A DNA stretch of 64,000 nucleotides from Vulcanimicrobiota bacterium. GTDB lineage: Bacteria; Vulcanimicrobiota; Xenobia; Xenobiales; JADMJV01. Under the pieces are notes generated by a model, which saw only the letters and a list, made by a program, of their open reading frames with translations, did not search any database and was not told the DNA's origin. The stretch is taken from contig JBAYRN010000011.1 of the NCBI GenBank assembly GCA_041676625.1, positions 2,564-66,563 of the forward strand, in the 5' to 3' direction. Positions 5,931 to 33,948 of this stretch are shown piece by piece (positions within the stretch are counted from its first letter, which is position 1; each line of letters begins with the position of its first letter). The translations under genes were made by a program, and so were the position numbers.

Positions 5931-6710
5931 TTATTGGTGCCCTCCGGGTAGTAGAAAACTGAGCACAGCGAAGATCGAAGCCACCAGCAAGATGGAGTTG
6001 AGTCTGCGCCCTTGCCAGCCCGCCACTCTGGCGTGCAAGTAGATGGTGTAGAAGATACTCGTGGCCACCACCACAATCTCCTGGGTGCCCCAGTACCAAT
6101 GTCCACCTTGAATAAAGAGGCCCGAAGCGATCCCGATGACCAGCGCAGGAAAACCCGCCCAGATGAGACGGTAGGAGACCAGATCCAGAGTGCCGAGGGG
6201 GGGCAGGGCCCGGAAGATCCCGTCGATCTGTTTTTTCTTCAAGAGCTTGGATTGGATGAAGTAAAGAATGGCACAGAACGAGGCCAGAAAGAACGAAGCA
6301 AACCCTAGCACCAGGCTGAAAACGTGGATGTAAAGGCCCGGCCCGGCCTCGGTGGTACCGTGCCCCTGCCACAGGGCAAAGACGCTGAACCCGGTCATGG
6401 CAAAGGCGGCGGGAGCGGCCACCGCACCCGTAACCTCCACGCTCCAGCGTTCGCCCAGCAACAGGTACAGCAGCATGATAAACCAGGCCAGGGGAGCAAA
6501 AGTCTCCTTTAAGCTGGCGATGGGCAGGTGGCCGCTACTCAGAGAGTAGATGGCCAGAGCCAGGGTATGGACTGCGAAGCTCGCCCACAAAACCTTGCGC
6601 CACCTGGGGAAGCTCTTCTGGCTTTCCAAGTAGATGCCACGCTGAATCCCGGCTCCCGCTACGAGGTAGCCGATAGCACTCAGAGTCAGCAGTGGCAGGG
6701 CAGAGTTCAT
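5931..6710 (-). CDS. hemX: CcsA-family integral membrane protein, HemX-like (hem-operon associated)
   Basis: 259 aa and about 8 TM segments, of the cytochrome-c-assembly family type with a degenerate Trp-rich motif (GGHWYWGTQE). Its position between hemA and hemC matches Bacillus hemAXCD. ATGA overlap with hemA. Confidence 0.7.
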   Translation of the reverse strand: MNSALPLLTLSAIGYLVAGAGIQRGIYLESQKSFPRWRKVLWASFAVHTLALAIYSLSSGHLPIASLKETFAPLAWFIMLLYLLLGERWSVEVTGAVAAPAAFAMTGFSVFALWQGHGTTEAGPGLYIHVFSLVLGFASFFLASFCAILYFIQSKLLKKKQIDGIFRALPPLGTLDLVSYRLIWAGFPALVIGIASGLFIQGGHWYWGTQEIVVVATSIFYTIYLHARVAGWQGRRLNSILLVASIFAVLSFLLPGGHQ

Positions 6711-7993: not shown

Positions 7994-8024
7994 GGATAAA
8001 CGAATTCGTTCGGACAATATCACG

Positions 8025-8033
8025 ATTATACCA
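8025..8033 (-). promoter_or_regulatory. Candidate extended -10 promoter element (TGGTATAAT on the minus strand) upstream of hemA
   Basis: The reverse complement of attatacca reads TGGTATAAT, 32 nt upstream of the hemA ATG. No good -35 element at 17-nt spacing. Confidence 0.3.
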
Positions 8034-8127
8034 CCAGGCCAAGGGAATAAATCCCCCAAAAGTCTGAAAAGAGTGCCAAAACCGATGAGTCTCGAGTTAA
8101 AAAAACGACAACATTTTCGACGGGATC

Positions 8128-8571
8128 CTAAGGGAAAACTTGCTTTCCTTTCTCGTCGTTGGCGATGAGAAAGCTCTCTTCGGTGTGTTTGTTTCGTTGA
8201 TACTTGGCCTTTTTCAGGCCGCTGGGCCAGTAGCTGACGTAGTCGATGATCCGGCCGTCGCTCTTGAGTAGCACGGCGTCTTTGCCGTTTCCGTGGCGGC
8301 GCTCGTAGGTGATGGTGCCGCCGGGGGTGCTCTGGTAGGTCACGCAGACGTTTCCGGCCGGATAGAACTTGGTGTAGGCCACCTTTCCGTCCTTTTCCAC
8401 CACGTACTTCTCTTTCTCCCGGCCGTCGGGCCATTGGGTTTCAAAGCTCTTCTTGCCCATCTTCTGGTAGGTGAGGAGGAGGTCGTTGACCTCTTTCTCG
8501 GCTTCTTTCACCGAGAGGGGCTGGGCCAGGGTGGATGCTGCTAAAATTAGAATCAGGAAAAGTAGTCGCAT
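8128..8571 (-). CDS. Secreted hypothetical protein with MORN/YwqK-like repeats
   Basis: Signal peptide MRLLFLILILAASTLAQP, then repeated G-x-aromatic beta-hairpin-like units (DGKVAYTKFYPAGN, GGTITYERRHGNG, DGRIIDYVSYWPSG). Confidence 0.55.
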   Translation of the reverse strand: MRLLFLILILAASTLAQPLSVKEAEKEVNDLLLTYQKMGKKSFETQWPDGREKEKYVVEKDGKVAYTKFYPAGNVCVTYQSTPGGTITYERRHGNGKDAVLLKSDGRIIDYVSYWPSGLKKAKYQRNKHTEESFLIANDEKGKQVFP

Positions 8572-8631: not shown

Positions 8632-8723
8632 AAGCAAAAAGAGTTCTTGGACAGGGGCGTTAGCTAGATACGCCTGACGTTTCGCCTCCAGCGTACAGCG
8701 CCTCACGTATGAAGTCTTCCGCC

Positions 8724-10451
8724 TTAACGATCTTCTCGATCTTGGGTGCGATGTAAATCATTGGACAATACTTTCCTCCCGGTTCGGTATGCTGAGAGCA
8801 GGTCATTTATCACCAGTTGGATGGTTTCCTTCCAACTCCGGTTCGATCGAATTTTGGTCAGCGCTCGACCAAAAGTTCTCGTGCTCAGTCGTGCGCTGCC
8901 CAGCATGCTTTCCCCCGGGCAAAGCAGGTGCAGCAACGGCTTCACGAAGATATTCTGGCGGATGTACTCACCGCTCAGGATGGCCCGCCCCAGTCGTCTC
9001 CGGAGCGAGGTGAGGAGATCGCCGGAAGGAGCCATCGCCTCCGGCTGGCCGGCTAAGCCGTTGGAGTGAACCATGAAAAAGGCCAGCCGCCCCAGGGAGG
9101 TGGGATCTTGTCGCAGTTGAGCGTGGAGGTCGGGGCGTTCTTCCAGGTGCACCGCCAGACCCAGCAGGTTTTCAAAGTCGCTTTCTTTCCACTCACAGAG
9201 CCGTTCGCTCAGGGTGGAAGCTTTCGGCGTTTCTTCGGCTCCTTCATCCAGGAGTTGCCAGAACAACTCCGGTGCGTAACCTGCCAATAGCTCGCGCTTT
9301 TGCTTGACCCTGGACGACAGCCCGTTGCGGGAGACTATTTTGGCCAGGCGGTACCAGTCTACGTCGGCTCGATTCAGGATCTGTTCGATGGCCCGCCGAT
9401 GATTCTCGGCGTCCTTGTCCACAACAAGGAAGAGTACCCTGTTGGCCTCTGTGGTGTTGACGGCGTCACGATTCCAGCTCTCGCCTCGGGCCACCCGCCA
9501 GACTTGCCGTTGGGCCAGTCGCAGGGCCACCTGTTCAGGTTCAGAAAGCTTTTGCCGGAGCACCTCGACGGCCTTCGGGTTGCCGCAGATCTCTCGGCAG
9601 AGCTGGCACATCCCGGAATAATGGGATTGGGAGCCAAAATCGCGAAACTCCGGAGTGGACTGCAGCACCCGCTTTAGCTCCATGGGTCCGGAAAGCCGGA
9701 TGGTTTCCAGGATCGGGTCGCTCTGGTGCCGCTCCAGCAACTCACTGATGGGGCCTTCTTTCAGGTGGCCCAGGAGCAGGGCCGAGTGTCGGGGCTCGAA
9801 ATAGGCCGGCCCGTTGCAGGCGGCTACCCTTCCGTCGTCGCACACGGTGGGCTGCTCACAGCCGCTGCAGAAGCCTTCGAGCTGGCCTCTGAGATCCTCG
9901 TTCAGGCCTTGGGCGAACCCCACCGGCTGCACGTCGTAAAAGCGAAAGGCAGCATTTTCGTAGGGAGTGAAGGGAGCCAGCAGTTCTTCCAGTTCGTGGT
10001 CGTCGGCGGTGCGGGTGATGTTGATATTGACGATCCACTGCTCCCGGCGCGCCACCTCCAAGATGTTGCAGACCGGATCGGGGCCCATGAACTTGGCGTG
10101 AAAGCGGTCGTAACTGATGGCCAGCCGCACCAGGCCGTGTTTGACCATCTGGTGGAAGAAGTCTCGGGCGCGCTCGGGCTTCTTCCCCCAGAAACCGTTG
10201 CTGACGATGGCGGTGGTGATCCCGTAGCGGGTGTGGGCAAGCTCCATGAGCTCAAAGAGTAGTCGGTGCCGGATCAACGGCTCACCCCCCGTAAACTGGA
10301 GCCTTCGGACTCCCGCTTCTCCCAACTCCATCACCAGTCGCCGTAGCTCCTCGGGCGAGGGCTCGGTGGTGATCCCAGGGTGGCTCTCGACGCTGCAGTG
10401 CCGGCAGCTCATGTTGCACTTTCGGGTCAGCATGACCACGGCGTTACTCAT
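8724..10451 (-). CDS. Radical SAM enzyme with a SPASM/twitch-like auxiliary Cys cluster region and a ~250-aa C-terminal extension
   Basis: CNMSCRHC (CX3CX2C) at residues 12-19 and FTGGEPL. The Cys-rich auxiliary region reads CSGC-x5-C-x7-C ... CQLCREIC. Total length is 575 aa. ATGA overlap with the upstream kinase-like gene. Confidence 0.85.
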   Translation of the reverse strand: MSNAVVMLTRKCNMSCRHCSVESHPGITTEPSPEELRRLVMELGEAGVRRLQFTGGEPLIRHRLLFELMELAHTRYGITTAIVSNGFWGKKPERARDFFHQMVKHGLVRLAISYDRFHAKFMGPDPVCNILEVARREQWIVNINITRTADDHELEELLAPFTPYENAAFRFYDVQPVGFAQGLNEDLRGQLEGFCSGCEQPTVCDDGRVAACNGPAYFEPRHSALLLGHLKEGPISELLERHQSDPILETIRLSGPMELKRVLQSTPEFRDFGSQSHYSGMCQLCREICGNPKAVEVLRQKLSEPEQVALRLAQRQVWRVARGESWNRDAVNTTEANRVLFLVVDKDAENHRRAIEQILNRADVDWYRLAKIVSRNGLSSRVKQKRELLAGYAPELFWQLLDEGAEETPKASTLSERLCEWKESDFENLLGLAVHLEERPDLHAQLRQDPTSLGRLAFFMVHSNGLAGQPEAMAPSGDLLTSLRRRLGRAILSGEYIRQNIFVKPLLHLLCPGESMLGSARLSTRTFGRALTKIRSNRSWKETIQLVINDLLSAYRTGRKVLSNDLHRTQDREDR

Positions 10452-11272
10452 AGCTTGGAGATCCTTTCGCCTTGGACGGCCAGGGAGGCCCGGCCCATTC
10501 GGTAGCAGCGGATGGCAGCCAGACGACCGGTCAGACGGGCCAGCCCTCCACCGATACCGTGAATTCGATAGCAGTTGGTCTGGGTCAGGATCTCCAGGGT
10601 TGCACTTGCGCTATCCATGGGTTCGAGAGGACCCTCCTCACAGCCCAGCAAAATGAGGTTCTTTAAGGGGACCGGCTCTGGCTCGACGACGGGTTGAAAC
10701 AGCACCGTACCGTCGTGGCGCACCTGAAAGTGGGAATGAGGCGGTAGTTTATCGGGCAAGACATCGGGCAGAAGCTCGCCGGCGGTTGGTCGAAGTCGAA
10801 CCCGTCGGGGCACCGGTCGGACCAGGACCCCGGACTGAAACCAGAATCCGTCATCCGCCAGGAGTTGCCAGCCCCGGGTCCAGAGATAGGTGGAGAGAGT
10901 CGATTTCCCGGTCTCCTTGGGGCCCACCAGGGCCAGACCCTCGCCCTCTTTGCAGAGCAGAGCGCCGTGGACGTATATGGGAGAGTCGGGGCGTCCCGAC
11001 AATACGGCTACCGACTGAAACTCCACGTTCAAGAGGGCGGTATCCAGATCGCTGTAGACCTCGCTGCTCAGGACAAAATCGGGAGTCAGCGGCGCATAGT
11101 TGGAGGGGGGCACGAGCCGGTAGCCATCTGCCTCTTTCAGAATTTCCCACGAAAAGTCGGGATTCCGCTCCGGTACATTCCAGGCGGAAAACATCTCCCG
11201 GGCTCGCTTTTCCACTTCTCTGTGAGCGGAGTGGAGGGCGAACGTGGCTTCTGGCTGCCCCCACAAAACCAT
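10448..11272 (-). CDS. HPr kinase/phosphorylase-related P-loop protein (HprK-related kinase, B-type by context)
   Basis: VHGALLCKEGEGLALVGPKETGKSTLSTYLWTRGWQLLADDGFWF parallels the HprK core (HG.L....G.G.L..G.SG.GKS....L...G..L..DD). Its start overlaps the PqqD stop by 1 nt. Confidence 0.75.
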   Translation of the reverse strand: MVLWGQPEATFALHSAHREVEKRAREMFSAWNVPERNPDFSWEILKEADGYRLVPPSNYAPLTPDFVLSSEVYSDLDTALLNVEFQSVAVLSGRPDSPIYVHGALLCKEGEGLALVGPKETGKSTLSTYLWTRGWQLLADDGFWFQSGVLVRPVPRRVRLRPTAGELLPDVLPDKLPPHSHFQVRHDGTVLFQPVVEPEPVPLKNLILLGCEEGPLEPMDSASATLEILTQTNCYRIHGIGGGLARLTGRLAAIRCYRMGRASLAVQGERISKL

Positions 11273-11541
11273 CAGGGTTGGATCAGCTCGTTCTGGCTCA
11301 GTTCCTGGAGATAGCTATCGATATCTCCGGCGAGCCTTTCTTTTTCTACATCGGGATGACGCTCGGCCATTTGTGCAACCAGCCAGTCTCGGCTACGGGG
11401 CGTTTCCAGTTGCTCCCAGATCCAGGTGCCGGTGGGGTTGAGGACGATAGAATTCTTGGTGCCTTTGTGGAAAAGTACTACTCTCTCTCCACTGGGGTGG
11501 GTCTCGGCTTCAGGGTGCCGCTGGATGAGTTGACTGCTCAT
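11272..11541 (-). CDS. PqqD-family peptide-binding protein (RRE-like)
   Basis: 89 aa: ERVVLFHKGTKNSIVLNPTGTWIWEQLETPRSRDWLVAQMAERHPDVEKERLAGDIDSYLQELSQNELI, which fits the PqqD/RRE pattern. The ATG at 11541 forms an ATGA overlap with the upstream gene. Confidence 0.75.
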   Translation of the reverse strand: MSSQLIQRHPEAETHPSGERVVLFHKGTKNSIVLNPTGTWIWEQLETPRSRDWLVAQMAERHPDVEKERLAGDIDSYLQELSQNELIQP

Positions 11542-12590
11542 ACTCGTTTCAGTCCTTTCAAGAGGAATTCGCCCAGGACTCGGGCGGGACGAAGGGCATA
11601 ATACACAAACCACAGTTGGGAGGGAAGATCGATGAGCCTCAGGTCATGAATTTGAGGGGTAAACCAGGTGTATAAAAGCAGCTTTAGGCGCTGCTGGACA
11701 TTTGATTGGCACTGGTATTGAAAGCGATGGTATTGGGGCCAGGAGAGTCGTTCTCCCTTGAGTCTGCTCAGGCTGTCTCCCAACAGAGAAGGCATCGGTT
11801 CGATGGGCTGGCCGGTCCCCCAAAGCTGCTCGAGAAGGCCTAGGGCCAGGCCCAGCGCACGTTCACACTTTTGAACCCTGGCAAAGAGCTCTGTTTGAGC
11901 TAGATCTATTCGGGAGTGCAACGCTTTGAGATCGTAAAGCCAGCGCAGTTGACTCCAGTAGTGCTTTGTTCCGTGCAGGGCCAGGTAGACGAAGAGGTGT
12001 TCGGCCCGAAAGGTGGGCACAGGATACCCCTGAATCTCAATGGCTTCGGAAGCCTCCCAGATACACTCCGTTGGGAAATGCACCCCGCCGGAAAATAGTT
12101 GGTAATGGAGATCGATGGTCAGGTTCTTTGCTTGGTTGCAGAGTGGTACTCCGTAATGAAACTTCGTATAGCAGCGAGGAAGGTTTTCCATTTCATATTG
12201 GAATCCAAAACCTAGTAAAAGGATAAGTGAACGCTGAAAATCTTCCGGTCTCACAAGGAGATCTATGTCGATGCACTCCCGCCCCGTAACCCGCCCGTGC
12301 GCCAATTGCGCCAGGGTGAGCCCTTTGAAACTCAGAACCTCGATCCCGTTCTCCTGAAAGAGTTTGACCAATTCCACCAGTTGCCCGGCCCGGTGGATCT
12401 CCGAGAGCGAGCGCATCGTGACTTCAGAAGAGAGTTCGGCCTGGACCTCCGGAGGCAACCCTGGAGTGTTGGCCAGGGGGAGGAGAAGTTTGTGACGACG
12501 AGCCAGTGCTATCAGGTCCGGCCAATCGTCGACTTCCTGAGGTCGTGGTGCGGGTCCCATCATGTTTACCAGGGTGTCGAAGGTCTTCAT
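11538..12590 (-). CDS. Nucleotidyltransferase-family protein (PF14907-like)
   Basis: 350 aa: DWPDLIALARRHKLLLPL.., IEVLSFKGLTLAQLAHGRVTGRECIDIDLLVRPEDF.., ALHGTKHYWSQLRWLYD. Matches the uncharacterised NTase family seen next to HprK-like kinases. First gene of the operon. Confidence 0.7.
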   Translation of the reverse strand: MKTFDTLVNMMGPAPRPQEVDDWPDLIALARRHKLLLPLANTPGLPPEVQAELSSEVTMRSLSEIHRAGQLVELVKLFQENGIEVLSFKGLTLAQLAHGRVTGRECIDIDLLVRPEDFQRSLILLLGFGFQYEMENLPRCYTKFHYGVPLCNQAKNLTIDLHYQLFSGGVHFPTECIWEASEAIEIQGYPVPTFRAEHLFVYLALHGTKHYWSQLRWLYDLKALHSRIDLAQTELFARVQKCERALGLALGLLEQLWGTGQPIEPMPSLLGDSLSRLKGERLSWPQYHRFQYQCQSNVQQRLKLLLYTWFTPQIHDLRLIDLPSQLWFVYYALRPARVLGEFLLKGLKRV

Positions 12591-23970: not shown

Positions 23971-23988
23971 GAATCCCTGGGTAAGAAG

Positions 23989-24017
23989 CACTCGGTTTTC
24001 GGGCCGGGTGTTTTTTT
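23989..24017 (+). terminator. Rho-independent terminator
   Basis: CACTCGG-ttttcggg-CCGGGTG followed by TTTTTTT, 19 nt after the acyl-CoA dehydrogenase stop. Confidence 0.65.
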
Positions 24018-24132: not shown

Positions 24133-24810
24133 ATGTATCAGACCAGCGACGTGAGTGTAGTTGTCCCTGTCTACGGCCCGCCTGAGTTCTTTTTGGAAGC
24201 CCTGGAAAGTGTAGTGAAAGAGCAGCCCGGAGAGATCATCGTGGTGGACGACGCCTCTCCGCGCCCTTTGCCGGATCTGAGTCGTTTCCCCGACCTGAAG
24301 CTAATCCGCCATTCCAGCAACCTGGGTCCTGGAGCGGCTCGCAACACGGGTGTGCGTGCGGCGGGCGGGACCTGGCTCTGTTTTAACGACGCCGACGACC
24401 TCTGGGTGGAAGGCCGCCTTAAGCTTCAGCTTGAGTTGGCCGAGCGCCATCAGGTGGATGTGGTGCATGGGAGACTCTCCTTTTTAGCTTCGGATGGCGG
24501 ACCTGATCCTTTAGAACGTACCGACCAGGTTTCACCAGGTATGCCGACTTACTTGCTACGGCGTGAGTTGGCCCTCCGTTTTCCTTTAGACGAGAGTTCC
24601 AAGTTTTCCGAGGACCTGGAGTTCTATGCACAGCTTAAGGACCATGGTGTGCCCATCCACTCTCATCCCGAAGCAGTCCACTGCTATCGACGCCACTCCA
24701 CCAGTCTCACTGCGGGACGGCCGCTTGACGACATCAAGGCCGATATTTTTCGCACCCTTTCGAGATCGCTCTCCCGACGACGTGCTTTAGCCCAGGGAGA
24801 ATCTAAATGA
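24133..24810 (+). CDS. Family 2 glycosyltransferase
   Basis: VSVVVPVYGPPEFFLEALESV, IIVVDDASP, GPGAARNTG, FNDADDLW. ATG at 24133. ATGA overlap with the next gene. Confidence 0.8.
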   Translation: MYQTSDVSVVVPVYGPPEFFLEALESVVKEQPGEIIVVDDASPRPLPDLSRFPDLKLIRHSSNLGPGAARNTGVRAAGGTWLCFNDADDLWVEGRLKLQLELAERHQVDVVHGRLSFLASDGGPDPLERTDQVSPGMPTYLLRRELALRFPLDESSKFSEDLEFYAQLKDHGVPIHSHPEAVHCYRRHSTSLTAGRPLDDIKADIFRTLSRSLSRRRALAQGESK

Positions 24811-25214
24811 GATTGCAGCCTAGAGATCGAGATATTGTTTGGGAGTCGATCGAGGGAGAGGTACTGCTGCTTGACCTCTTCCACGGAGTTTATTACAGCG
24901 TGCGCTTCGGTACCGCCCAGTTGGTGAGCGACCTGCTCCACGGTCATAGACCTGGCGAGGTGGCCGAGCGGTGGCTGGAGAAAGTCGGGCCTACTTCTGG
25001 CCTTCAAGAGAAGATCCAGAGCTTGTCGGCTTATCTCGTCGAGCATGGTCTTGCCGTTTCGGGTCGGCCCGAACCCTCCGAGCCGGCAGCCTTCCTCGAG
25101 CTTGAGTCCCACGAACTCCCCGATATCGAGCGCTTCGAAGACATGAAAGAGATCTTCGAGATGGATCCGATTCATGAAGGAGACCTCGAGCGCGGATGGC
25201 CAGTCCACAACTAG
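24807..25214 (+). CDS. PqqD-family peptide-binding protein (RRE-like)
   Basis: 135 aa: IVWESIEGEVLLLDLFHGVYYSVRFGTAQLVSDLLHGHRPGEVAERWL...IQSLSAYLVEHGLAV, plus an acidic tail. Confidence 0.7.
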   Translation: MRLQPRDRDIVWESIEGEVLLLDLFHGVYYSVRFGTAQLVSDLLHGHRPGEVAERWLEKVGPTSGLQEKIQSLSAYLVEHGLAVSGRPEPSEPAAFLELESHELPDIERFEDMKEIFEMDPIHEGDLERGWPVHN

Positions 25215-26266
25215 AGCTTTACCACTGCGCGACGGCTCCGCCGGCACAGGCTCTGCAAATGTGGAACGAATTGCTGGATGGAATTCCGGTGGAGGATTTT
25301 GACTATCCCGCCCAGCGTCTTTTGCCCGCCGTGTGGTCTAATCTCAAGAAGGCCGGCCAGGAGTTTCCGCAAGAGCCCCGCTTGCGCGGCGTTTACCGCC
25401 TCACCTGGATCAAGAACTCCCTGCTTCAAAGAGCCTGTCTTGAGACCTTAGATCTCTTCGAGGCTCAACAACTTCCGGTGATAGTCCTCAAAGGTCAGGC
25501 TTTCAATACTTTGCTCTATCAAGAGCAAGGTGTACGCAGCGCCAACGACTTCGATCTCCTGGTACCTTTTCAACGAGCGCCTCAAGCCTTGGCACTGCTG
25601 GCCGAAGCTGGTTGGCAGCCCGCCGGTGGGAAATGGCCTGACCCTTGCCTGAGACTGGAAAATGCTGTGGCTCTGAAAAAAGGCCGGGCTGAACTCGATC
25701 TTCATTGGTATTTGCTGCGGGAAGCGCGAGAGGAAACCTTTGATGCTCCCTTGTGGCAAGAAGCGGTGCCCTTCCCTTTTGCCGGTCGAGAGGCTTTGAC
25801 TTTGTGCCCCACCCACCATCTTCTTCACCTCTTGGTCAGTGCCAATCGCGAGCCTGAGAGTCTGGGGCGCTACCTTTTGGACCTTCGTTTACTCACCCAG
25901 GAGTATGCGGGCGCACTCGACCAGCGAGCCGTCCTTCGCTTGATGGAAGAGCGGCACTTGCTCAGCCGCTTGAATGGCTTGCCTCTGGCCGAGTGTGGAC
26001 TGACGGAACTCACGACCACGACGGCCCCAGCTCTACTGGATCGGGCCTGGAGCCACGCCACGCGCTATGTTTCAGGCGGTTCCCATGAATGGCACTATTT
26101 GATTTTCCCTTTCCTTGATTTTTGGCTTCACTATCGAACGGGCCAAGAACCGAAATGGAATTTTTGGACCTATATAGTACGGCGTTTGGAGGTGTCGGAC
26201 GCCAGAGAATTTTTTGTCCGAACCTATCGCAAACTTCTACGGATGGTGAAACACGCTTGGCGCTGA
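25196..26266 (+). CDS. Nucleotidyltransferase-family protein (PF14907-like)
   Basis: LPVIVLKGQAFNTLLYQEQGVRSANDFDLLVPFQRAPQAL.., ELDLHWYL. It aligns by eye with the 11538-12590 product (IEVLSFKGLTLAQL..IDIDLLVRPEDF). Confidence 0.7.
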   Translation: MASPQLELYHCATAPPAQALQMWNELLDGIPVEDFDYPAQRLLPAVWSNLKKAGQEFPQEPRLRGVYRLTWIKNSLLQRACLETLDLFEAQQLPVIVLKGQAFNTLLYQEQGVRSANDFDLLVPFQRAPQALALLAEAGWQPAGGKWPDPCLRLENAVALKKGRAELDLHWYLLREAREETFDAPLWQEAVPFPFAGREALTLCPTHHLLHLLVSANREPESLGRYLLDLRLLTQEYAGALDQRAVLRLMEERHLLSRLNGLPLAECGLTELTTTTAPALLDRAWSHATRYVSGGSHEWHYLIFPFLDFWLHYRTGQEPKWNFWTYIVRRLEVSDAREFFVRTYRKLLRMVKHAWR

Positions 26267-27267
26267 AGGACCCTCATGATTTCTTAGAGCAAGTCTGGCC
26301 GCTCTGCGCCGGGCGGGCCGGCTTTTCCACGCCGGTGGGTTCCCACGCTTTGCTTTTGGATTGCCCCGATGATTCGTGGATGGAAGCTCTGTCTCGTGGC
26401 TTTTGGAAGATCTCGCAGGAGTTGGAGGGGGATAGTCCCTTTCACATTCGCGTGATCGGCCGGAGTGACCTTGAACGCTTGCCACCATTCCCTCTCACTC
26501 TGGCGCAGGAATCGGTTCGGGGCCGCATCGAGCCTTGGTGTACCGACGATTTTCTGGCCGTGGGCACTCTCGGGGGGCTTTTTTTGGCCGACCGACCCCG
26601 GGGTAGAGCCGTTCTCTACTACGCAGCGCCGTCTTCTATCCCGATCTGGGACCTCTGTGCACCGCTACGAACGGCACTCGGCTTTTTGCTGCCCGCCCAG
26701 GGCTATCATCTGCTGCACGGGGCGGCGGTGAGCTTTCAAGGCTCGGCCTGTCTCTTGGTGGGCAAAGGAGGCTCGGGCAAGAGTTCTTCGGCGCTTTCAG
26801 CTTTAAATCCGGGAAGCTCCTTGGAATTCGTGAGCGAAGACTATACGCTGGTGGAGTCGGAATCTCTCACTGTTCATCCTCTCTATCGCTCTTTCAAGGT
26901 CGGCTCCGCGGGCTTTACTCGCATGCCTTATTTGGAGAGATTCGAGAAGTTGGGAGAGCAGGACCAAAAGATCTGTTCGCTGTTGGACGGTTCGTTGTCC
27001 CCGAAGCCTGCCCGTTTGAAAGCGGTGCTCTGGCCCGATCTCCATGAGCCAACTCTTTTGGGGCCGATCCCTCGGGCAACCGCTTTGCTGAAGCTTGCTC
27101 CCAGCACCCTCTTTCAAAACCCCAACGCCCGACGAGAGGATTTTCAGGCTCTGGCCGCGCTGTGCCGCCGCTTGGACTCCTATTGCCTGGGTTTGGGCCG
27201 GCAGCCCTCTTTCGAAGTCGTGGAAAAGAGCCTGCAAGGCTTATTGGGGGAGTTCGCTTCCCTATGA
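26257..27267 (+). CDS. HPr kinase/phosphorylase-related P-loop protein (HprK-related kinase, A-type by context)
   Basis: YHLLHGAAVSFQGSACLLVGKGGSGKSSSALSAL..FVSEDYTLV. The track ORF begins at 26122, but that overlaps the upstream gene by 145 nt. The TTG at 26257 is a guess and the start is uncertain. Confidence 0.65.
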   Translation: MALKDPHDFLEQVWPLCAGRAGFSTPVGSHALLLDCPDDSWMEALSRGFWKISQELEGDSPFHIRVIGRSDLERLPPFPLTLAQESVRGRIEPWCTDDFLAVGTLGGLFLADRPRGRAVLYYAAPSSIPIWDLCAPLRTALGFLLPAQGYHLLHGAAVSFQGSACLLVGKGGSGKSSSALSALNPGSSLEFVSEDYTLVESESLTVHPLYRSFKVGSAGFTRMPYLERFEKLGEQDQKICSLLDGSLSPKPARLKAVLWPDLHEPTLLGPIPRATALLKLAPSTLFQNPNARREDFQALAALCRRLDSYCLGLGRQPSFEVVEKSLQGLLGEFASL

Positions 27268-27923
27268 CAGTGAGCGTGATCATTCCGGCACACAACGCCG
27301 AAGCCTTTCTGGGCCAAGCCCTGGAGAGTGTTTTGGCCCAGACCCATCCAGCCCACGAGATCGTCGTCTTCAATGACGGCTCCACCGATCGAACAGCCGA
27401 GATCTTGAGAGAATTTGAGGGAAAGATCTTAGTCCTGGGAGGAGAGGGCCCGGCTCGAGGAGCCGCCCATGCCAGGAATCGTGCCGTGGAAGTGGCTCAA
27501 GGAGAGTTTTTGGCTTTTCTCGATGCCGACGATCTTTGGCTCCCCGAGAAGTTGCAGCGTCAACTCGAAGCCCACGCTCGACAAACTGAAGACTGCGCCG
27601 TCTTTGGTATGGTCCAAGAGTTCAATAGCGAGGGTCCCTTGGGAGAGTATCGGACTTGTGCTCTTTCTTCGGTCTGCCTGGTCTGGCGAGAGCTCGCCCG
27701 AAGAGCAGGGCCCTTTGATGAGAGCTTGACCTTGGGTGATTTCGCGGACTGGATCGCTCGGATTCAGGAGCTTCCAGCTCGCCTGCTTTACCTGGAGCAG
27801 CCTTTGGCCAGGCGACGCTATCACCAGAACAACTTAGGAAAACGCGAGGTCGGTCAGCGCCAAGACTACTTGGAAGTGGTGAGACGTAGGCTGGCCCGAC
27901 GTCGTCAGGGAACTCAACAGTAG
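27264..27923 (+). CDS. Family 2 glycosyltransferase (paralogue of 24133-24810)
   Basis: MTVSVIIPAHNAEAFLGQALESV, IVVFNDGSTD, GAAHARNRA, FLDADDLWLPEKLQRQLE. ATGA overlap with the upstream gene. Confidence 0.8.
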   Translation: MTVSVIIPAHNAEAFLGQALESVLAQTHPAHEIVVFNDGSTDRTAEILREFEGKILVLGGEGPARGAAHARNRAVEVAQGEFLAFLDADDLWLPEKLQRQLEAHARQTEDCAVFGMVQEFNSEGPLGEYRTCALSSVCLVWRELARRAGPFDESLTLGDFADWIARIQELPARLLYLEQPLARRRYHQNNLGKREVGQRQDYLEVVRRRLARRRQGTQQ

Positions 27924-28012: not shown

Positions 28013-28771
28013 ATGAGCGTGAAGATTCAAGCTCCCAAATACTCCCAGAGTTCTACTCTGCGAAAACCCGAGGCCCGGCGGGACGACCGATCCGAGCAGG
28101 CGGTTGACCGAGTGGAGCTTCGGGCTGGAGGGGTGCAGAAGGGCTCTCGCTGGGTGGGCCGGGTGGGCAAATTTATTTCAAAGGTTCCCAAGTTTCTGGC
28201 TCACACCGCCAAGTTTATCGGAGTGACCCTGCTGGGTGGTTTGACCGCTGCGGTTCAGTTGGCGGCTGGCTCCATCGGACTGGTGGGTATGGCCGGGCTG
28301 GGCCTTGCTGGGGCGCTGGAAGTGCGAGACGGCGTCAAAGAAAAGGATCCTCTCAAGATGCTCTCGGGGACCGGGGAGATCGTCAGGGGGGCTTACACCG
28401 GAGCTCTCTCCACCGGCTATCTGTTGGATCTCGGGCAGCACGCCGGAATGGCCGTAGCCACCTCCGCCCTGGGGGGGCTTCAAGGGAGTATCTACCTGTC
28501 CAGCGGGGCTATGAAATTTGTGAAAGGGCGCGCCGAGGGAGATAACCAGCGCCGGACCGAAGGAGCCCTGGAAGTGGGAATGGGGGTAGCCAGTCTGGGA
28601 ATGCTCGCGGCCCCCCTCACCCCGGTGGCCCTCGGAGTCTTCGGTGCTCTCTGTGCAGCCCGATTCGTGGTGGTCAACAAAGACCGGATCAAAGAGGGCG
28701 TGCAAAACGCGCGTCAGGTCTTGAATGAATACCGAAGAAAGATGGCCGACGAGCTGATCAGCGACCGCTGA
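28013..28771 (+). CDS. Gly/Ala-rich hypothetical membrane-associated protein (glycine-zipper-like)
   Basis: 252 aa. A polar K/R/Q-rich N-terminus with no signal peptide is followed by GxxxG/A-rich hydrophobic stretches (VTLLGGLTAAVQLAAGSIGLVGMAGLGLAGA). Confidence 0.5.
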   Translation: MSVKIQAPKYSQSSTLRKPEARRDDRSEQAVDRVELRAGGVQKGSRWVGRVGKFISKVPKFLAHTAKFIGVTLLGGLTAAVQLAAGSIGLVGMAGLGLAGALEVRDGVKEKDPLKMLSGTGEIVRGAYTGALSTGYLLDLGQHAGMAVATSALGGLQGSIYLSSGAMKFVKGRAEGDNQRRTEGALEVGMGVASLGMLAAPLTPVALGVFGALCAARFVVVNKDRIKEGVQNARQVLNEYRRKMADELISDR

Positions 28772-29558
28772 TGCTGCTGGGGAAGTAGCCGGCATGGGTC
28801 ACCAGCGGGCCTACTTGAAAGCACTCCAGTTGTGGATTGGCCTTGTTTCGGAAAGGTATGAGGTATTGATTGCGTTCGGCTAAAGATTTGGTGTGCATCA
28901 TTATGAGCATGTCGATATCTGCGGATGCGTCATCGAGAATAGTCAACATTTTTTTGAGACCCCTCCGAGAAATGATGTAGCCGTCAGTTCCCCAGCCAAT
29001 TTTGACGCGCCCGCAGTAATCACCCTGAACTCGGTTATTTAGAAACACCAGGTCGAACTCCACCGGCAGTTCCAGTTTCGGTGAGCCATGGATCACTCCG
29101 TCATCCTCAAAGATGGCCAGAAACTCCCATCCCTGGGCCAGTGCGTGTTGGTAAAGCTTTCTGGTTGTGAGCAAAAGTCCGATCGCGCCTGCCGAAAAAT
29201 CGCGGCCCTCCACGTGTTCTTTGAGCCAGTCGGGAGGGGCTTGAAGGGTAGAACCGTCCACTGCAGGCCACAATTCTACCGGCCAACCAGATTTTCTGGC
29301 CCAGTGCTGAAAGAGTCTCCTGCGGGATTGGTACCTCACGTCATCAAGCAAACTGATGCAGTAAATTCCGGTATTTATTCCCGCATTTCTTGCCAGGTCG
29401 ACGGTGTGCCAGCGGGTGGGGTCGGAAGTCCACCAGCGAAACCACCGCCGGATCCAGGTGTTGATGAGCGCTCTGGCCTGATTTAAAGGAATGCGAACTT
29501 GGAGAACAACTCGACGCAGAGGGGTCTTAATTGCGGGTGGAAGCCTCTCGACGAACAC
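28758..29558 (-). CDS. Glycosyltransferase family 25-like protein
   Basis: IYCISLLDDVRYQSRR, LWPAVDG, GAIGLLLTTRKLYQ, FLAIFEDDGVI and GTDGYIISRRGLKKML resemble the GT25 (LOS beta-1,4-galactosyltransferase-type) pattern. The start is uncertain because of a ~60-aa N-terminal lead. Visibly lower G+C than its flanks. Confidence 0.55.
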   Translation of the reverse strand: MFVERLPPAIKTPLRRVVLQVRIPLNQARALINTWIRRWFRWWTSDPTRWHTVDLARNAGINTGIYCISLLDDVRYQSRRRLFQHWARKSGWPVELWPAVDGSTLQAPPDWLKEHVEGRDFSAGAIGLLLTTRKLYQHALAQGWEFLAIFEDDGVIHGSPKLELPVEFDLVFLNNRVQGDYCGRVKIGWGTDGYIISRRGLKKMLTILDDASADIDMLIMMHTKSLAERNQYLIPFRNKANPQLECFQVGPLVTHAGYFPSSISGR

Positions 29559-29568
29559 GCACTGCCCT

Positions 29569-32500
29569 TTATAACTGAGTCGATGGATCGACGGTGGATG
29601 ACGGACTCTGGGTTCGGTTGCGGAATTTCCTCTTGAGTAGGTCTTCGTCGTCCCACCAGTTCAGGGGTATGAGAACGTCTTCGTAATAAAAATCCCACTG
29701 GCCGGAGCCGATGAGCGACTGGGTGTATTTCTCCACCAGGTCCACATCGTTCTGGGCAAACTCTGAGCCGGTCCGGTCATCGTCGTCAAAGCGCGGCTGG
29801 TCGTCCGAAAAGAAGCGTTCTCCCGGCGGGGTTTGAGGCCCGGGGGGCGTTTCGGGGGTTACCGGAGTCGGGGGAGGGGTGGGGTCGATGGGAGGTGTAG
29901 GAGCGGGAGGGTTGCCCTGGTTCACGGTAACCTCCACCGAGGTAACGCTGTTTACCGGGTCAGGGGAGGACGACAGGTTGCTGGAGCTACTATAAAGGGA
30001 GAGGTTCTGGGCCTCGATGACGATGGGACTTCCGGGGGTGCCGACCGTCCCGTTGGCCCCCAACCCCAGATTAAAGGTGCTGACTCTCCCACCGTTTTGA
30101 ATTACGTTGCCCTGAGCCACCAACACCAGGTTGTCACCCGCTGTGACGTCATTGTTCAAGATGATGTTGGGAGGCACCGCCAGTTGGGCGGGAATTTGGA
30201 GTTGGGTGCCCGCTACCAGGGCTACATCGTAGGCCTCTATATCAGTAGAGACAGTGAGATCACTGAGATCTGAACGGACTCGAAACTCGTCGTCGGCGGT
30301 TCCGGCATCGGAGACTTTGGCGTTGTTCACGATCGTGAGAGGATCGGAACCGATGTTTTGGATGTAGAGGCTGTGCCCCGCGGCTGGAGAGAGGGTGGAG
30401 GCAAGGATCTGCAGGTCGTTGTCGATGGCCCCGATGTCGTTATCGGCTTCCAGCAGGACCCCGGGGGCTTCGAGCAGGCCGTTGGGGCGCTGGATGATGT
30501 CATCGGAGGAGTTCAAAAAGATCTCGGTGTTGCCCCGAAGCCGGGTCGCCACGCTGATATCTCCGTTGTTTTCCAGGTGAAAGGTATCGGCCCGATTGCC
30601 GCTGATGCTCTTGTTTCGAAACGACAGGCTTCCGGTAAGGGTTACCTCCTGCTCGGCTCCGCCGTTGGTGGAGAGGAAGTAGTCCGTGCCGGAGGTGCTT
30701 CCGATCGCGAGGTTCTTGACACGGTCGATCTCGACGGGAGTGGCCTCGCTGCCGAAGTCGCTCGACAAACTCAAGCCGAGGTTGTCGGCGGAGATGTCGA
30801 CGCTGTTATTTAGCGAGGCAGCGTTGATAAGGAGAGTCTTGTCTGTGCCGGTGAGGTCAAAGCCGAGGGAATTCACGTCGCCGGTGGCGTCGATGGAAAC
30901 GTTGCCTCCGGACTCAACCCCGCCCGGAATGGCCAGTCCCCCGGTGACACCGACCACGATGTCGCCCTGTTGGGTTGTGACCGGAATGGAAGACGGGGGC
31001 GTCAAGTTGTCGATATCGTTTGTGGTCAGTGATTCATCAGCACCTTCCAGGGTGACGGTTGTTCCGGAATCCGGGGTCAGGGCCAGGAAGATGTTGGAGT
31101 TGGAGCCACTGGCGTTGACCTGCAGACTGTCGGACTGCACGGAGAGCGGTGCGCTCTGGCTACCAATGTCTTCGTCGGCGAAGAGGGCCAGAAAGGTGTT
31201 GCCGCCGCTAGCGATGATGTTGGGGCTCGCGCCACCACTGAGCAATGAGGAGTCGCTCGCGTTGAGGACCACGAACTGGTCGTTCTGGAGAGAAAGACCG
31301 TTGATGGCAAGGTCGGCCAGGGAGGTGAGGCGGGTGACGGTATCTGACGCGATCGCTGTACCATCCATTTGGAGACCGCTGGAGTTGTGAGTCAGCATGT
31401 CTCGACTCAACTCTTTATTGTTCAGTACCACGTCTCCACCGTTGAAGGTGAAGTCGATAAACTGGAGGGTTCTCGAATCCTCCTCGGAGCGGATGCCAAT
31501 GGGTGCGTTTGGCCCTTCAGCTTTCACCGTGAGGTTCGGAGTCAAGACGTCGATGAGCTTGCTGGTCGTGCCAACACCCTGAAAGCCTTCGAGAGTGATA
31601 CCCCCGTTGGGGGCGTGGACTTCAAGGACCTCGTCACTGGGATCAGGATCTGCTTCTATGGTCCCTAGAGTAGAAATCTTGACATCCCCGTCTATAGAAG
31701 AAGCGGCGGCACTAGGGGTGGGCGTGATTGTTGGCGTCAGGATAATCCCTTCGGCCTCCGGGGCGATATCATTCACCACCACGCTGTTCTGACCGTACGC
31801 GGACAACTTCGTCTTGCCCGAAGTGGTGTCGATCGCTGCGGTGACGGACCCATTTACTGAATTAAGAATGATCCGGGGAGACTTCAGCCCGAATTCGCTA
31901 TCGGCATCACCGATGATATCACCATTCGATTCTGCCAGGACCGAGATCTCGGTTCCGGCCATGATATCGGCGTTGGTGATGTCGACGGAACCTGCTTGGG
32001 AGGTGAGGCTTACGGACTGCCCGGCATCGGCACGAACCACGGTCAGATTTCCACCCGCTTCGGCTTTAATATCTGTGCCGGCGACCCAGCGTGATTCGTT
32101 ACCCTCGGTAATGGCTTGAGTGACAGAGCCGCCGGCGTCTAAGAGAATATCCTTCGCCCGCATTTCGGTGTCGGTGATCGTAATGTTACCGGTGGCATCC
32201 ATATCAATGTGTGAGAAGTAGGTGGGATTGTCTTGCGTCCCGGAAAAATCGGAGATAAAAGTGCTGCCTTCGACCAGGATATTGCCGCCGGTCGAATTTA
32301 TGGCCAGCGTAGCGGCGGCTTCAGCCGCACCGCTGTCGTCGTACTCTTCCTCGAAACGGATCGTAGTGCCGGTAATCGACACATCACCACCGGCGGTCAG
32401 GTGGACGTGCCCGCCGTCTTCTGAGCCAGCCTGGTTTTGAGTATCGATGGTGGCTCCGGTAATGGTGATTTTCCCCCCGGCGTCCGCCTCAAAGCCCCGA

Positions 32501-33948
32501 TCGGCAACGATGGTGCCCGACCCGATGAGGATGTCGTCGGTGGCCTTGAGCGTGAGGGCACCGCCGATATCGATGTCGTGGTTTCCCAGGTTGATGTAGG
32601 TGCCGTTATTCCCGTCTTCCACAAGAGTTGCATCTAAAGTGAGGCTACCCGAGCCGGTGGAAACGATATCGGTTTCCAACTCGATGAACCCACTAGATTT
32701 TAGATCGTATAAGGTGCCACTATTGATGAGAACTAAGATGTCATCAACCTCAACATAGGTGATACCCGACTCGCTCCCCGCCGTCTCTACGATTCTCGTA
32801 TTGCCCGGATCCAACAAAAACGTCCCACCCCGTCCGTCGACCCGGGTGAAATCAAGCTCCCCTTCCAGCTTCACCTGGTTTCCACTGACCTCGATGAAGC
32901 CGGCGTCCCCGGACTCCCCTCCCCGGGCGGCAATGGTGGCTCCTTCTTGAAAGGTGGTCAGTCCGGGCGGCCCGCCTTCCATGTTCGATAGCACCCGCAC
33001 CTCTCCGGCCGAGCTGTTTACTCCCACCCCGGAGGCCGAGGTCAGGGAACCGCCGGTCAGCAGGGTGTAGTCCGCCGAATCCAGCAGCACGTTACCCGCG
33101 TTTGCATGGTCTCGCCCGTCCGCCGAAACGGTGCCGGCCTGGACTAAAGTACCGGAGGAGCTGACCAGCCGGTAGGAGCCGTCCGGCATCTGGGTGAGCT
33201 GATCGGCTCGGCGGGTGGAGGGCACTCCCAGGGTCTGGGCGATGGTTTCCGACAGCATGCCCGGGGCCAGCAGCACCGTGCCGTCGGAGACCTCGCCGCT
33301 CAAGGAGAAATGCACCAGGTCCCGGCCGTCCAGATTCAGGGTGGCTTGCTCTCCCGAGGCCAGCACCACGTTGCCGGTGCGCGCCACGATGGTACCCTCG
33401 TTGATCACGGTGGGCGCCACCAGGACCGCGTAGCCGGCGTCGGTGATGGTGATCTGTCCCTGGTTCACCACGGCGGCCAGAGCTTGGTTCTGGTCTTGAA
33501 AAAAGTTGTAGTTACCGGCCAGAAAATCCTGATCGGTGATGTTCAGGCTGGAGGCCACCAGCCCCCCCACGTTGACCACGGAGGTGGGTCCGAAGAGGAT
33601 GCCGTTGGGGTTGATCAAGAACACGTTGCCGTTGGCGGTGAGCTGCCCCTGGATCAGCGACGGGTCCACCCCTGTGACCCGGTTGAGGATCACCGAAAGC
33701 TGGCTCGGCTGCAAGAATTGCACCGACTCCCCCAGCCCCACGGAAAAGCTCTGCCAATCCACGATGGCCCGGTCGGTGAGTTGCTGGATCACGGCGTGGG
33801 TCCCGCCTGCGATGTTGACCTCGCCGTGTCTCACGCTGTGCCCGGACGGGTTGGCCGCAGCCGAACCGGCTAGCCCCACGGACAGACCTATCGAAAGTAA
33901 GCCCCCTAGAAATCGTGTCCTCATCTTTTGGAAACGCCGAGTTTTCAT
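29569..33948 (-). CDS. Two-partner-secretion exoprotein (TpsA; filamentous haemagglutinin N-terminal domain protein), 1459 aa
   Basis: Signal peptide, then a TPS domain (AVIQQLTDRAIVDWQSFSVGLGESVQF, VILNRVTG, FLINPNGILFG), a long beta-helical G/T/S/N/D-rich repeat body, a Pro/Thr-rich linker and a ~100-aa C-terminal module. Confidence 0.9.
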   Translation of the reverse strand: MKTRRFQKMRTRFLGGLLSIGLSVGLAGSAAANPSGHSVRHGEVNIAGGTHAVIQQLTDRAIVDWQSFSVGLGESVQFLQPSQLSVILNRVTGVDPSLIQGQLTANGNVFLINPNGILFGPTSVVNVGGLVASSLNITDQDFLAGNYNFFQDQNQALAAVVNQGQITITDAGYAVLVAPTVINEGTIVARTGNVVLASGEQATLNLDGRDLVHFSLSGEVSDGTVLLAPGMLSETIAQTLGVPSTRRADQLTQMPDGSYRLVSSSGTLVQAGTVSADGRDHANAGNVLLDSADYTLLTGGSLTSASGVGVNSSAGEVRVLSNMEGGPPGLTTFQEGATIAARGGESGDAGFIEVSGNQVKLEGELDFTRVDGRGGTFLLDPGNTRIVETAGSESGITYVEVDDILVLINSGTLYDLKSSGFIELETDIVSTGSGSLTLDATLVEDGNNGTYINLGNHDIDIGGALTLKATDDILIGSGTIVADRGFEADAGGKITITGATIDTQNQAGSEDGGHVHLTAGGDVSITGTTIRFEEEYDDSGAAEAAATLAINSTGGNILVEGSTFISDFSGTQDNPTYFSHIDMDATGNITITDTEMRAKDILLDAGGSVTQAITEGNESRWVAGTDIKAEAGGNLTVVRADAGQSVSLTSQAGSVDITNADIMAGTEISVLAESNGDIIGDADSEFGLKSPRIILNSVNGSVTAAIDTTSGKTKLSAYGQNSVVVNDIAPEAEGIILTPTITPTPSAAASSIDGDVKISTLGTIEADPDPSDEVLEVHAPNGGITLEGFQGVGTTSKLIDVLTPNLTVKAEGPNAPIGIRSEEDSRTLQFIDFTFNGGDVVLNNKELSRDMLTHNSSGLQMDGTAIASDTVTRLTSLADLAINGLSLQNDQFVVLNASDSSLLSGGASPNIIASGGNTFLALFADEDIGSQSAPLSVQSDSLQVNASGSNSNIFLALTPDSGTTVTLEGADESLTTNDIDNLTPPSSIPVTTQQGDIVVGVTGGLAIPGGVESGGNVSIDATGDVNSLGFDLTGTDKTLLINAASLNNSVDISADNLGLSLSSDFGSEATPVEIDRVKNLAIGSTSGTDYFLSTNGGAEQEVTLTGSLSFRNKSISGNRADTFHLENNGDISVATRLRGNTEIFLNSSDDIIQRPNGLLEAPGVLLEADNDIGAIDNDLQILASTLSPAAGHSLYIQNIGSDPLTIVNNAKVSDAGTADDEFRVRSDLSDLTVSTDIEAYDVALVAGTQLQIPAQLAVPPNIILNNDVTAGDNLVLVAQGNVIQNGGRVSTFNLGLGANGTVGTPGSPIVIEAQNLSLYSSSSNLSSSPDPVNSVTSVEVTVNQGNPPAPTPPIDPTPPPTPVTPETPPGPQTPPGERFFSDDQPRFDDDDRTGSEFAQNDVDLVEKYTQSLIGSGQWDFYYEDVLIPLNWWDDEDLLKRKFRNRTQSPSSTVDPSTQL

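Follow-up and report, generated by a model that had tools for sequence, protein, structure and literature searches.

The subject of this report is a compact cassette of five plus-strand genes at positions 24133-27923 of a 64,000-nucleotide stretch of DNA (the window) from a Vulcanimicrobiota bacterium (GenBank assembly GCA_041676625.1, contig JBAYRN010000011.1, positions 2,564 to 66,563 of the forward strand). A first-pass annotation, made from the letters alone, had read these genes in order as a family-2 glycosyltransferase (GT2), a PqqD-like protein, a PF14907-type nucleotidyltransferase (NTase), an HprK-like P-loop protein and a second GT2. These domain calls hold, and the motifs quoted in their support are all present, namely LLVGKGGSGKSS..SEDYTLV in the P-loop protein and FNDADDLWVEGRLKLQLE and FLDADDLWLPEKLQRQLE in the GT2s. 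In the following, Q denotes the 135-residue protein resembling PqqD and the recognition element (RRE) of systems for peptides that are made on the ribosome and modified after translation (RiPPs), N the PF14907 NTase, K the HprK-like P-loop kinase and G a GT2. The features of the locus are:

23985-24017, plus strand: terminator-like hairpin with a U-tract, 3' of an acyl-CoA dehydrogenase gene; 5' boundary of the cassette transcription unit
24133-24810, plus strand: GT2a, soluble family-2 glycosyltransferase of 225 amino acids with a DAD(D) motif (PF00535, 84.6 bits)
24807-25214, plus strand: Q, PqqD/RRE-like peptide-binding protein of 135 amino acids (AlphaFold2 (AF2) model and homologues with PF05402)
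25196-26266, plus strand: N, PF14907 nucleotidyltransferase of 356 amino acids (PF14907, 119.8 bits)
26257-27267, plus strand: K, P-loop kinase of the HprK/phosphoenolpyruvate carboxykinase (PEPCK) superfamily, 336 amino acids (start as in public annotation)
27264-27923, plus strand: GT2b, soluble family-2 glycosyltransferase of 219 amino acids with a DAD(D) motif (PF00535, 113.5 bits)

The genes are tightly packed. The ATGA overlaps at 24807-24810 and 27264-27267 and the 19-nucleotide overlap at 25196-25214, on which the first-pass annotation had remarked, are all found. The start of the K gene is most likely the TTG at 26257 (336 amino acids), as annotated in ENA ERZ27247376 k141_1513539 and in GCA_041654815.1; this start creates a fourth overlap, of 10 nucleotides with N, so that all four gene junctions overlap. 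On the upstream side, the acyl-CoA dehydrogenase gene stops at 23970 and is followed by the hairpin at 23985-24017, a 13-bp stem with a U-run (-16.1 kcal/mol, z = -3.9; none of 200 shuffles as stable). This is likely to be an intrinsic terminator and sets the cassette apart as a unit of its own. The hairpin was spotted by eye and then folded, and is absent from the consensus terminator scan; within the cassette the consensus promoter and terminator scan returned no promoter, and fewer terminator-like sites than in shuffled sequences.

K is a member of the HprK/P-PEPCK-like superfamily of P-loop kinases by its conserved residues, by profile search and by fold. PEPCK and the catalytic domain of HPr kinase/phosphorylase (HprK/P) belong to the same superfamily. 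The key residues of K are H154, G169-KGGSGKS176 and E194-D195, and in an alignment of 34 homologues, with the consensus LVHGAAV..GGVLLVGKGGSGKST.AL..L......Y..DDY, the invariant positions are H154, GSGKS (172-176), D195, K214 and K238. Comparison of the K family profile with PDB sequences places the HprK/P entries 1jb1, 2qmh, 1knx and 1ko7 on top (E 1e-4), and K aligns with L. casei HprK/P at the P-loop, at the His upstream of it and at the acidic pair (DD) downstream. The AF2 model of K has a mean predicted local distance difference test score (pLDDT) of 94.5, and in Foldseek its top matches are PEPCKs, on which both domains superpose (E 2e-10, TMq about 0.5). Compared with HprK/P and PEPCK, K has a different N-terminal domain and lies in a genomic context related neither to the phosphotransferase system nor to gluconeogenesis. 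Its scores against HprK/P proper are low, with 15.1 bits for TIGR00679 (cut-off 240) and 15.3 bits for PF07475 (cut-off 33.3).

The first-pass annotation had assigned the PqqD/NTase/kinase triad to the HPr-rel-A system. That system (TIGR04352 with TIGR04353) and TIGR04355 do share with the present cassette the pairing of a PqqD-family protein with an HprK-related P-loop kinase, and TIGR04352 (HprK-related kinase A) and TIGR04355 (HprK-related kinase B) are the best NCBIfam matches of K. However, K attains only 24.3 bits with the former (E 1.4e-5), confined to residues 193-257 (~60 residues, P-loop region), and 20.1 bits with the latter, against a cut-off of 200 in both cases; the K of Oscillatoria reaches 20.9 bits with TIGR04355, and Q has no TIGR04353 match at E<=1 (cut-off 35). 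These low scores place K outside the HPr-rel-A and -B families, and the assignment is rejected here. The kinase of another gene group in the window (cassette 1, described below) is nearer to TIGR04352, with 44.6 bits, a value that is also under the cut-off.

Q itself gives no Pfam match even at E<=10, PF05402 included, and has lasso_PqqD_Strm as its sole NCBIfam match (14.7 bits, E 0.027). With a profile built from Q together with 29 relatives, more than 2,000 proteins are found, and PF05402 is carried by every one of the best 120; identity of Q to the more distant proteins of a 60-sequence alignment is 21-29%, and the Oscillatoria Q scores 52 bits against lasso_PqqD_Bac. In the AF2 model (pLDDT 86.7) residues ~1-85 form the RRE fold, for which the top Foldseek matches are the lasso B1 protein TbiB1 (5v1v, 5v1u) and 6jx3, with template modelling (TM) scores of 0.80-0.83 and root-mean-square deviations of 2.3-2.8 Å, followed by the RRE domains of TigE, CteB and SkfB. 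Q is thus predicted, by way of its model and its relatives, to have a winged-helix RRE fold of three strands and three helices and homology to PF05402 proteins, the PqqD/RRE assignment being an indirect one.

A new feature is the strongly conserved C-terminal tail that alignments reveal in the RRE proteins of the module (FExPxL..KYTDM..LLDPIHDVDExGWP); this tail, the very wide distribution and the kinship with lasso tailoring genes described below are all absent from the first-pass annotation. Module Q proteins have about 135-160 residues, as against about 90, and are made up of the RRE, a variable linker and the conserved terminal segment. In the window Q, a confidently modelled extension (~86-119) leads into the conserved tail at 120-135, DPIHEGDLERGWPVHN, and the full tail reads HELPDIERFEDMKEIFEMDPIHEGDLERGWPVHN. 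Across 138 database members the consensus is F-E-x-P-x-L-x-K-Y-T-D-M-Q-D-L-L-L-L-D-P-I-H-D-V-D-E-T-G-W-P followed by 4-10 residues. D-P-x-H, W, P and the D of 'DM' do not vary in it, and across the 60-sequence alignment the invariant positions are D112, D120, P121, H123, G130, W131 and P132. The conserved extension of ~50 residues is absent from BsfB1, from TbiB1 and other solved B1 proteins, and from the PqqD of cassette 1. In the model, confidence is high at residues 86-112 (pLDDT 84-96), where 108-110 form a strand; 113-119 form a helix, and over the final 15 residues the pLDDT drops to 52-56. In one locus from a Chloroflexia metagenome-assembled genome (MAG), L087, the RRE part (7181-7573) and the tail (7539-7685) lie in two overlapping plus-strand frames; this may be a frameshift error or a rare split arrangement, and looks like a frameshift.

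The remaining three proteins have intact catalytic motifs. N exceeds the PF14907 cut-off of 31.2 bits several times over, in agreement with the family placement made at first pass, and its translation contains the Pol-beta-type motif G..(x)..N-D118-F-D120; both GT2s pass PF00535 (cut-off 23.3) and carry DADD. With these motifs all three look catalytically competent. The GT2s are related to each other, as had been noticed earlier, with 35% identity across 171 residues (E 1e-17). In other loci the counterparts of GT2a are found at position +1, as the first GT2 after K, and those of GT2b at positions +2 to +5, as the last of a tandem run. Since the two map to different orthologous positions they are non-redundant, old paralogues with presumably different jobs.

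The module is abundant and ancient. In a scan of one genome per GTDB species it was found in 329 species genomes, and an exhaustive HMMER scan of 1.84 billion representatives yielded 3,122 K family clusters (50% identity) at E<=1e-30. Homologues of the window K comprise 18 close ones (45-55% identity) and many that are more distant (about 30-35%). Neighbourhood results refer to the best 80 loci, which span more than 10 phyla and include Cyanobacteria, Acidobacteriota, Chloroflexota, Planctomycetota, Desulfobacterota, Verrucomicrobiota, Bacteroidota, Actinomycetota, Alphaproteobacteria, Margulisiibacteriota and one Woesearchaeote, an archaeal genome. Among cultured carriers are Cerasicoccus frondis NBRC 105381, Aestuariivirga litoralis KCTC 52945, Oscillatoria sp. 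FACHB-1406, Laspinema olomoucense D3b and Cronbergia sp. UHCC 0137. Two close relatives, L003 and L004, have the same order G-Q-N-K-G with unrelated flanking genes, and variant orders include N-Q-K-G-G in Oscillatoria, Q-K-G-G-N in a Phycisphaerales MAG and N/Q-K-G-GT4-G in Abditibacteriota. The relatives closest to the window cassette (L010 and L011, with 52-55% identical proteins) come from MAGs that bear the labels Burkholderiales and Selenomonadaceae. This is odd given the Vulcanimicrobiota-type contig of the window, and mis-binning or horizontal transfer may be the cause.

All open reading frames (ORFs) of the fetched loci were classified with iterated hidden Markov models (HMMs) for the four families. 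Where K is flanked by at least 5 kb on both sides (48 loci), Q is present in 41, N in 44 and at least one GT2 in all 48, with two to five GT2s in 39; Q lies directly upstream of K in 34. The recurrence of the same gene set in 80 loci of many phyla with differing flanks indicates that the cassette is more than a chance juxtaposition. Gene fusions link K to other parts of these neighbourhoods. K is fused to a GT2, in either order, in P0064, P0233, P0260, P0296, P0351 and P0355, to an NAD-dependent sugar epimerase/dehydratase domain in P0310 (617 amino acids), and to a complete ABC exporter (ABC_membrane and ABC_tran) in P0354 (941 amino acids; locus L028, K941). Q and K form a single ORF in two Acidobacteriota loci, L082 (6282-8678, plus strand) and L026 (6924-8777, plus strand), with two extra RRE-like repeats in the former and a partial one in the latter; in both fusions the Q tail is internal.

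The accessory genes are a typical tailoring and export repertoire. The most frequent is an MsbA/HlyB/CydC-like ABC exporter (19 loci, about a quarter), followed by GT2s with tetratricopeptide repeats (TPR-GT2, 12 loci), sulfotransferases (about 9), NAD epimerases (7), methyltransferases (6), short-chain dehydrogenases/reductases (SDRs; 5), and GT4s and ABC-2 transporters (about 3 each). Across the ~80 loci, radical SAM enzymes, proteases, cyclases, flippases/polymerases and priming glycosyltransferases do not recur in the neighbourhoods. For the window, it had been noted at first pass that core RiPP enzymes and a transporter are absent. The cassette and its immediate neighbours indeed include no protease or transporter, and neither a lasso cyclase nor a radical SAM enzyme; an ABC exporter accompanies about a quarter of the related loci.

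The trio of RRE protein, kinase and NTase finds its parallels in the tailoring of lasso peptides. In Bradymonas, BsfK phosphorylates Ser3 of the precursor, its activity being 'greatly enhanced' by BsfB1 and requiring H148, K169, S170, D186 and D187 (PMC10368454). In Bacillus pseudomycoides, PsmK phosphorylates the C-terminal Ser of pseudomycoidin, and PsmN, an 'uncharacterized NTP transferase', is required for the attachment of one or two hexoses to this phosphorylated residue (PMC6993621). Bona fide lasso clusters of Butyrivibrio likewise bring together an NTase, an HPr kinase and a GT2 (PMC7533575). When the published bsf genes were translated and scored with our family profiles, BsfK matched the K profile over its whole catalytic half (43 bits, E 1e-14) and BsfB1 matched the Q profile on the RRE part (55.7 bits). 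The essential residues of BsfK correspond to residues conserved in the K family. Q and K are therefore homologous to BsfB1 and BsfK, and the trio to a kit with demonstrated peptide-directed activities. Further points of likeness with the tailoring genes of the paeninodin, pseudomycoidin, Bradymonas and Butyrivibrio systems are the joint occurrence of a B1-type RRE, an HprK-like kinase and an 'N' nucleotidyltransferase, the nearness of the Q fold to lasso B1 proteins, the shared kinase catalytic residues, and GT2s, sulfotransferases and ABC exporters as frequent companions.

In contrast to lasso clusters, the module has no B2 protease, C cyclase or precursor gene, either here or at the ~80 loci: no lasso precursor A, B2 protease or cyclase C was detected in the cassette, in its flanks (window positions 4-16.6 kb and 16-57 kb), or among the recurrent neighbours. 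It differs also in having at least two GT2s as core components and a Q with a conserved extension of ~50 residues, and the pairwise identity of BsfK to K is only about 30% across 71 residues. Thus a trio of RRE protein, kinase and NTase that was known only from the optional decoration of lasso peptides occurs as an independent GT2-centred system as well. Searches of the literature on the gene combination, on PF14907 and on ScmC/SynChlorMet turned up papers on lasso peptides and a single brief mention in phosphonate genomics, and nothing else; in the libraries searched, no paper describes this module.

We put at about even odds (a probability of roughly 0.5) the reading that the five genes form a self-contained module which phosphorylates and glycosylates a polypeptide in an RRE-dependent manner, the polypeptide often being exported afterwards, and that the module derives from the same stock as the lasso tailoring genes and works without the lasso protease or cyclase. 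On this proposal Q would hold a peptide segment and form a complex with K, and K would transfer a phosphate from ATP to one residue of the polypeptide so bound; N and both GT2s, which are non-redundant, would then build a short glycan on or beside the phosphate, and in many relatives an ABC exporter would secrete the product. The analysis shows the families and folds with intact motifs, the conservation of the five genes across phyla, the K fusions and the sequence relationship of Q to BsfB1 and of K to BsfK; peptide phosphorylation by K, sugar addition by N and the GT2s, the order of these steps and the identity of the substrate are inferred. The first-pass annotation had likewise proposed RRE-guided phosphorylation followed by sugar decoration. 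That idea fits the BsfB1/BsfK and PsmN precedents and the GT2-K, exporter-K and RRE-K fusions, and is kept here as plausible rather than proven. Should the peptide reading be true, the module would define a new family of phospho-glycosylated peptides or proteins and offer a genetic handle on PF14907 chemistry.

A number of observations weigh against phospho-glycosylation of a polypeptide. The full-length model of K matches PEPCK at least as well as HprK/P, a resemblance that leaves a small-molecule substrate conceivable. The nearest named relatives of the GT2s are polysaccharide enzymes, all far under threshold, and PsmN was likened to PF14907 by its description as an 'uncharacterized nucleotidyltransferase'. 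No conserved small ORF emerged when ORFs of 18-110 amino acids in and around the ~80 modules were clustered, the only clusters being antisense shadows of ABC and SDR genes; a six-frame search with the tail HMM found no free-standing tail peptide, and the same kind of search found the cassette-1 precursors at once. Finally, Ser, Thr and Tyr are all missing from the last 30 residues of the window Q, and no hydroxyl residue of the tail is invariant across the Q family.

Several of these observations would suit a module that makes an envelope or secreted glycoconjugate such as an oligosaccharide, a glycolipid or a phospho-sugar polymer, with Q as a co-opted scaffold that has no peptide substrate. 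K would then phosphorylate a sugar or lipid intermediate, N would activate or transfer a sugar phosphate, and the GT2s would extend the glycan. Alignment of the K model over both domains with PEPCK, a small-molecule kinase, is in keeping with such a pathway, as is the want of a precursor ORF. The same holds for the best GT2 matches, of TuaG, EpsD, WcaA and PglI type, for the fusion of K to an epimerase, and for the accessory sugar-nucleotide epimerases/dehydratases, SDRs, GT4s, methyl- and sulfotransferases, MsbA/PglK-like ABC exporters and ABC-2 transporters; close to the window cassette there are, moreover, a GT25-like gene and an exoprotein with a two-partner-secretion (TPS) domain. However, these neighbours are not conserved at orthologous loci, and the named GT2 matches are 4- to 20-fold under their cut-offs, so that they indicate only a generic GT-A domain. 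Nor do the recurrent neighbours include a priming phosphoglycosyltransferase, Wzx/Wzy or a polysaccharide co-polymerase. No role other than peptide binding is known for RRE/PqqD domains; most complete loci have a Q, which as a rule lies directly upstream of K and is sometimes fused to it, and the closest characterized relative of K is a peptide kinase. We regard a glycoconjugate pathway, the main rival reading, as unlikely, if well worth keeping in view.

The conserved tail of Q suggests another way in which the module might act on a peptide, for Q could be a fused precursor consisting of RRE, leader and core, with its own tail as the substrate. The FExPxL element, lying in the RRE groove, would present the segment DPIH..D.E.GWP to K, N and the GT2s. 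The tail carries an [FY]xxPx[LI] element ~17-18 residues before the invariant block, and in lasso leaders the motif YxxPxL lies at -17 to -12 (PMC10368454); the match in motif and spacing suggests a fused leader-plus-core in Q. The low pLDDT of the last 15 residues is what is expected of a presented segment, and the extreme conservation of the tail across phyla is typical of cofactor-type precursors. The product would be a modified protein tail or an excised peptide-derived molecule, cofactor-like in the manner of pyrroloquinoline quinone (PQQ) or mycofactocin rather than a variable antibiotic. The want of a separate precursor fits as well, and MftF is the best NCBIfam match of GT2a, though sub-threshold. 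If the tail were the substrate, Q would be a RiPP-like precursor of a new, self-contained kind, a rare example of a precursor joined to its RRE, and would imply a conserved phospho-glycosylated tail or peptide-derived factor across more than 10 phyla.

Against this, the tail profile shows no significant likeness to lasso-type precursors (BsfA and the four cassette-1 precursors), 5-40% of shuffles scoring equally. The window tail, having no Ser, Thr or Tyr, is not an O-phosphorylation site in this organism, and, no such residue being invariant in the family, modification would need an Asp, Glu, His or Trp acceptor, for which HprK-type kinases offer no precedent. The recurrent neighbours include no protease that could release a product. 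In L026 and L082, where Q is fused to K, the tail lies within the protein; a free C-terminus is therefore not needed, and the tail could instead be the interface between Q and K. We hold it improbable that the tail is the substrate, and just as doubtful that the modification would fall on a non-hydroxyl residue (Asp, His, Trp) or on a variable Thr. The tail may be a docking element for K and other enzymes or itself the modified segment; the insignificant similarity to precursors, the lack of an invariant hydroxyl and the internal tails make a docking role at least as likely as a substrate role.

A polypeptide substrate encoded next to the cassette had been sought at first pass in the Gly/Ala-rich protein of 28013-28771. 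This has no family match and is not conserved beside orthologous cassettes, and is therefore a poor substrate candidate. The suggestion that the module might co-vary with exosortase or PEP-CTERM genes also found no support, as no such link was seen in the neighbourhoods.

Of other systems that combine related components, the SynChlorMet cluster shows the same pairing of PqqD-like (ScmD) and HprK-like (ScmC) proteins. It differs in its radical SAM enzymes ScmE/F, which have no partner here, and K lacks a TIGR04249 match; a precomputed match to PF27840, under which newer Pfam gives the family the name ScmC, exists for many K homologues, is 'faint' for that of locus L008, and is not on record for the window K. 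The SunS-type glycocin GT2s and mycofactocin MftF share the GT2 (GT-A) domain with GT2a and GT2b, and SunS is a weak match of GT2b. In contrast to those enzymes, the window GT2s are minimal, with about 220 residues and without a peptide-recognition domain. In NCBIfam, GT2a has only generic sub-threshold GT2 matches, of which MftF is the best (70 bits against a cut-off of 280), and both window GT2s score under the equivalog cut-offs, with 70.1 and 67.2 bits for MftF (280) and 20.2 bits for SunS (350).

The first-pass annotation had called the present cassette the second of its kind, and a first one does exist on the minus strand. The features of this cassette 1, and of the precursor-like peptides of a related metagenomic locus (L091, with a 57%-identical cassette), are:

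8724-12590, minus strand: cassette 1, with a PF14907 NTase, a PqqD, an HprK-like kinase and a YydG-like radical SAM enzyme
8660-8761, minus strand: small ORF beside cassette 1, MIYIAPKIEKIVKAEDFIR|EALYAGGETSGVSS; longer frame 8660-8806, with an internal Met at 8761
6520-6612, plus strand of L091: precursor-like peptide
6626-6721, plus strand of L091: precursor-like peptide
7433-7522, plus strand of L091: precursor-like peptide

The PqqD of cassette 1 scores 55.7 bits against PF05402. The small ORF is a likely precursor gene. Its peptide has a lasso-type leader (YxxPxI), in which Y occupies -17 and I-R occupy -2/-1, exactly as in BsfA, and it ends in Ser-Ser. In L091 three tandem homologous peptides lie directly 3' of the radical SAM gene. 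Cassette 1 and its peptide, as far as can be judged from their sequences, look like a real RiPP cluster without a lasso cyclase. The possibility that the two window cassettes are duplicates of each other was considered and rejected. There is no BLAST similarity between their PqqD, NTase and kinase pairs, and they are therefore distinct systems; the kinases are linked weakly by a family HMM (14 bits).

Downstream of the five-gene cassette lie three genes that are not kept beside its orthologues (28013-33948). The first (28013-28771, plus strand) encodes the Gly/Ala-rich protein, which has 252 amino acids and is apparently membrane-embedded, the second (28758-29558, minus strand) the weakly GT25-like protein, and the third (29569-33948, minus strand) a 1,459-residue protein with the TPS domain PF05860. 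The PADLOC anti-phage models gave no match at E<=0.01 to the five cassette proteins or to the protein of 28013-28771. Elsewhere in the window, the ORF for HemA, the glutamyl-tRNA reductase (6707-8434, minus strand), encodes 575 amino acids, and its GlutR domains start only at residue ~153; the Arg-rich N-terminal ~150 residues look like the result of an over-extended start rather than a part of the real protein.

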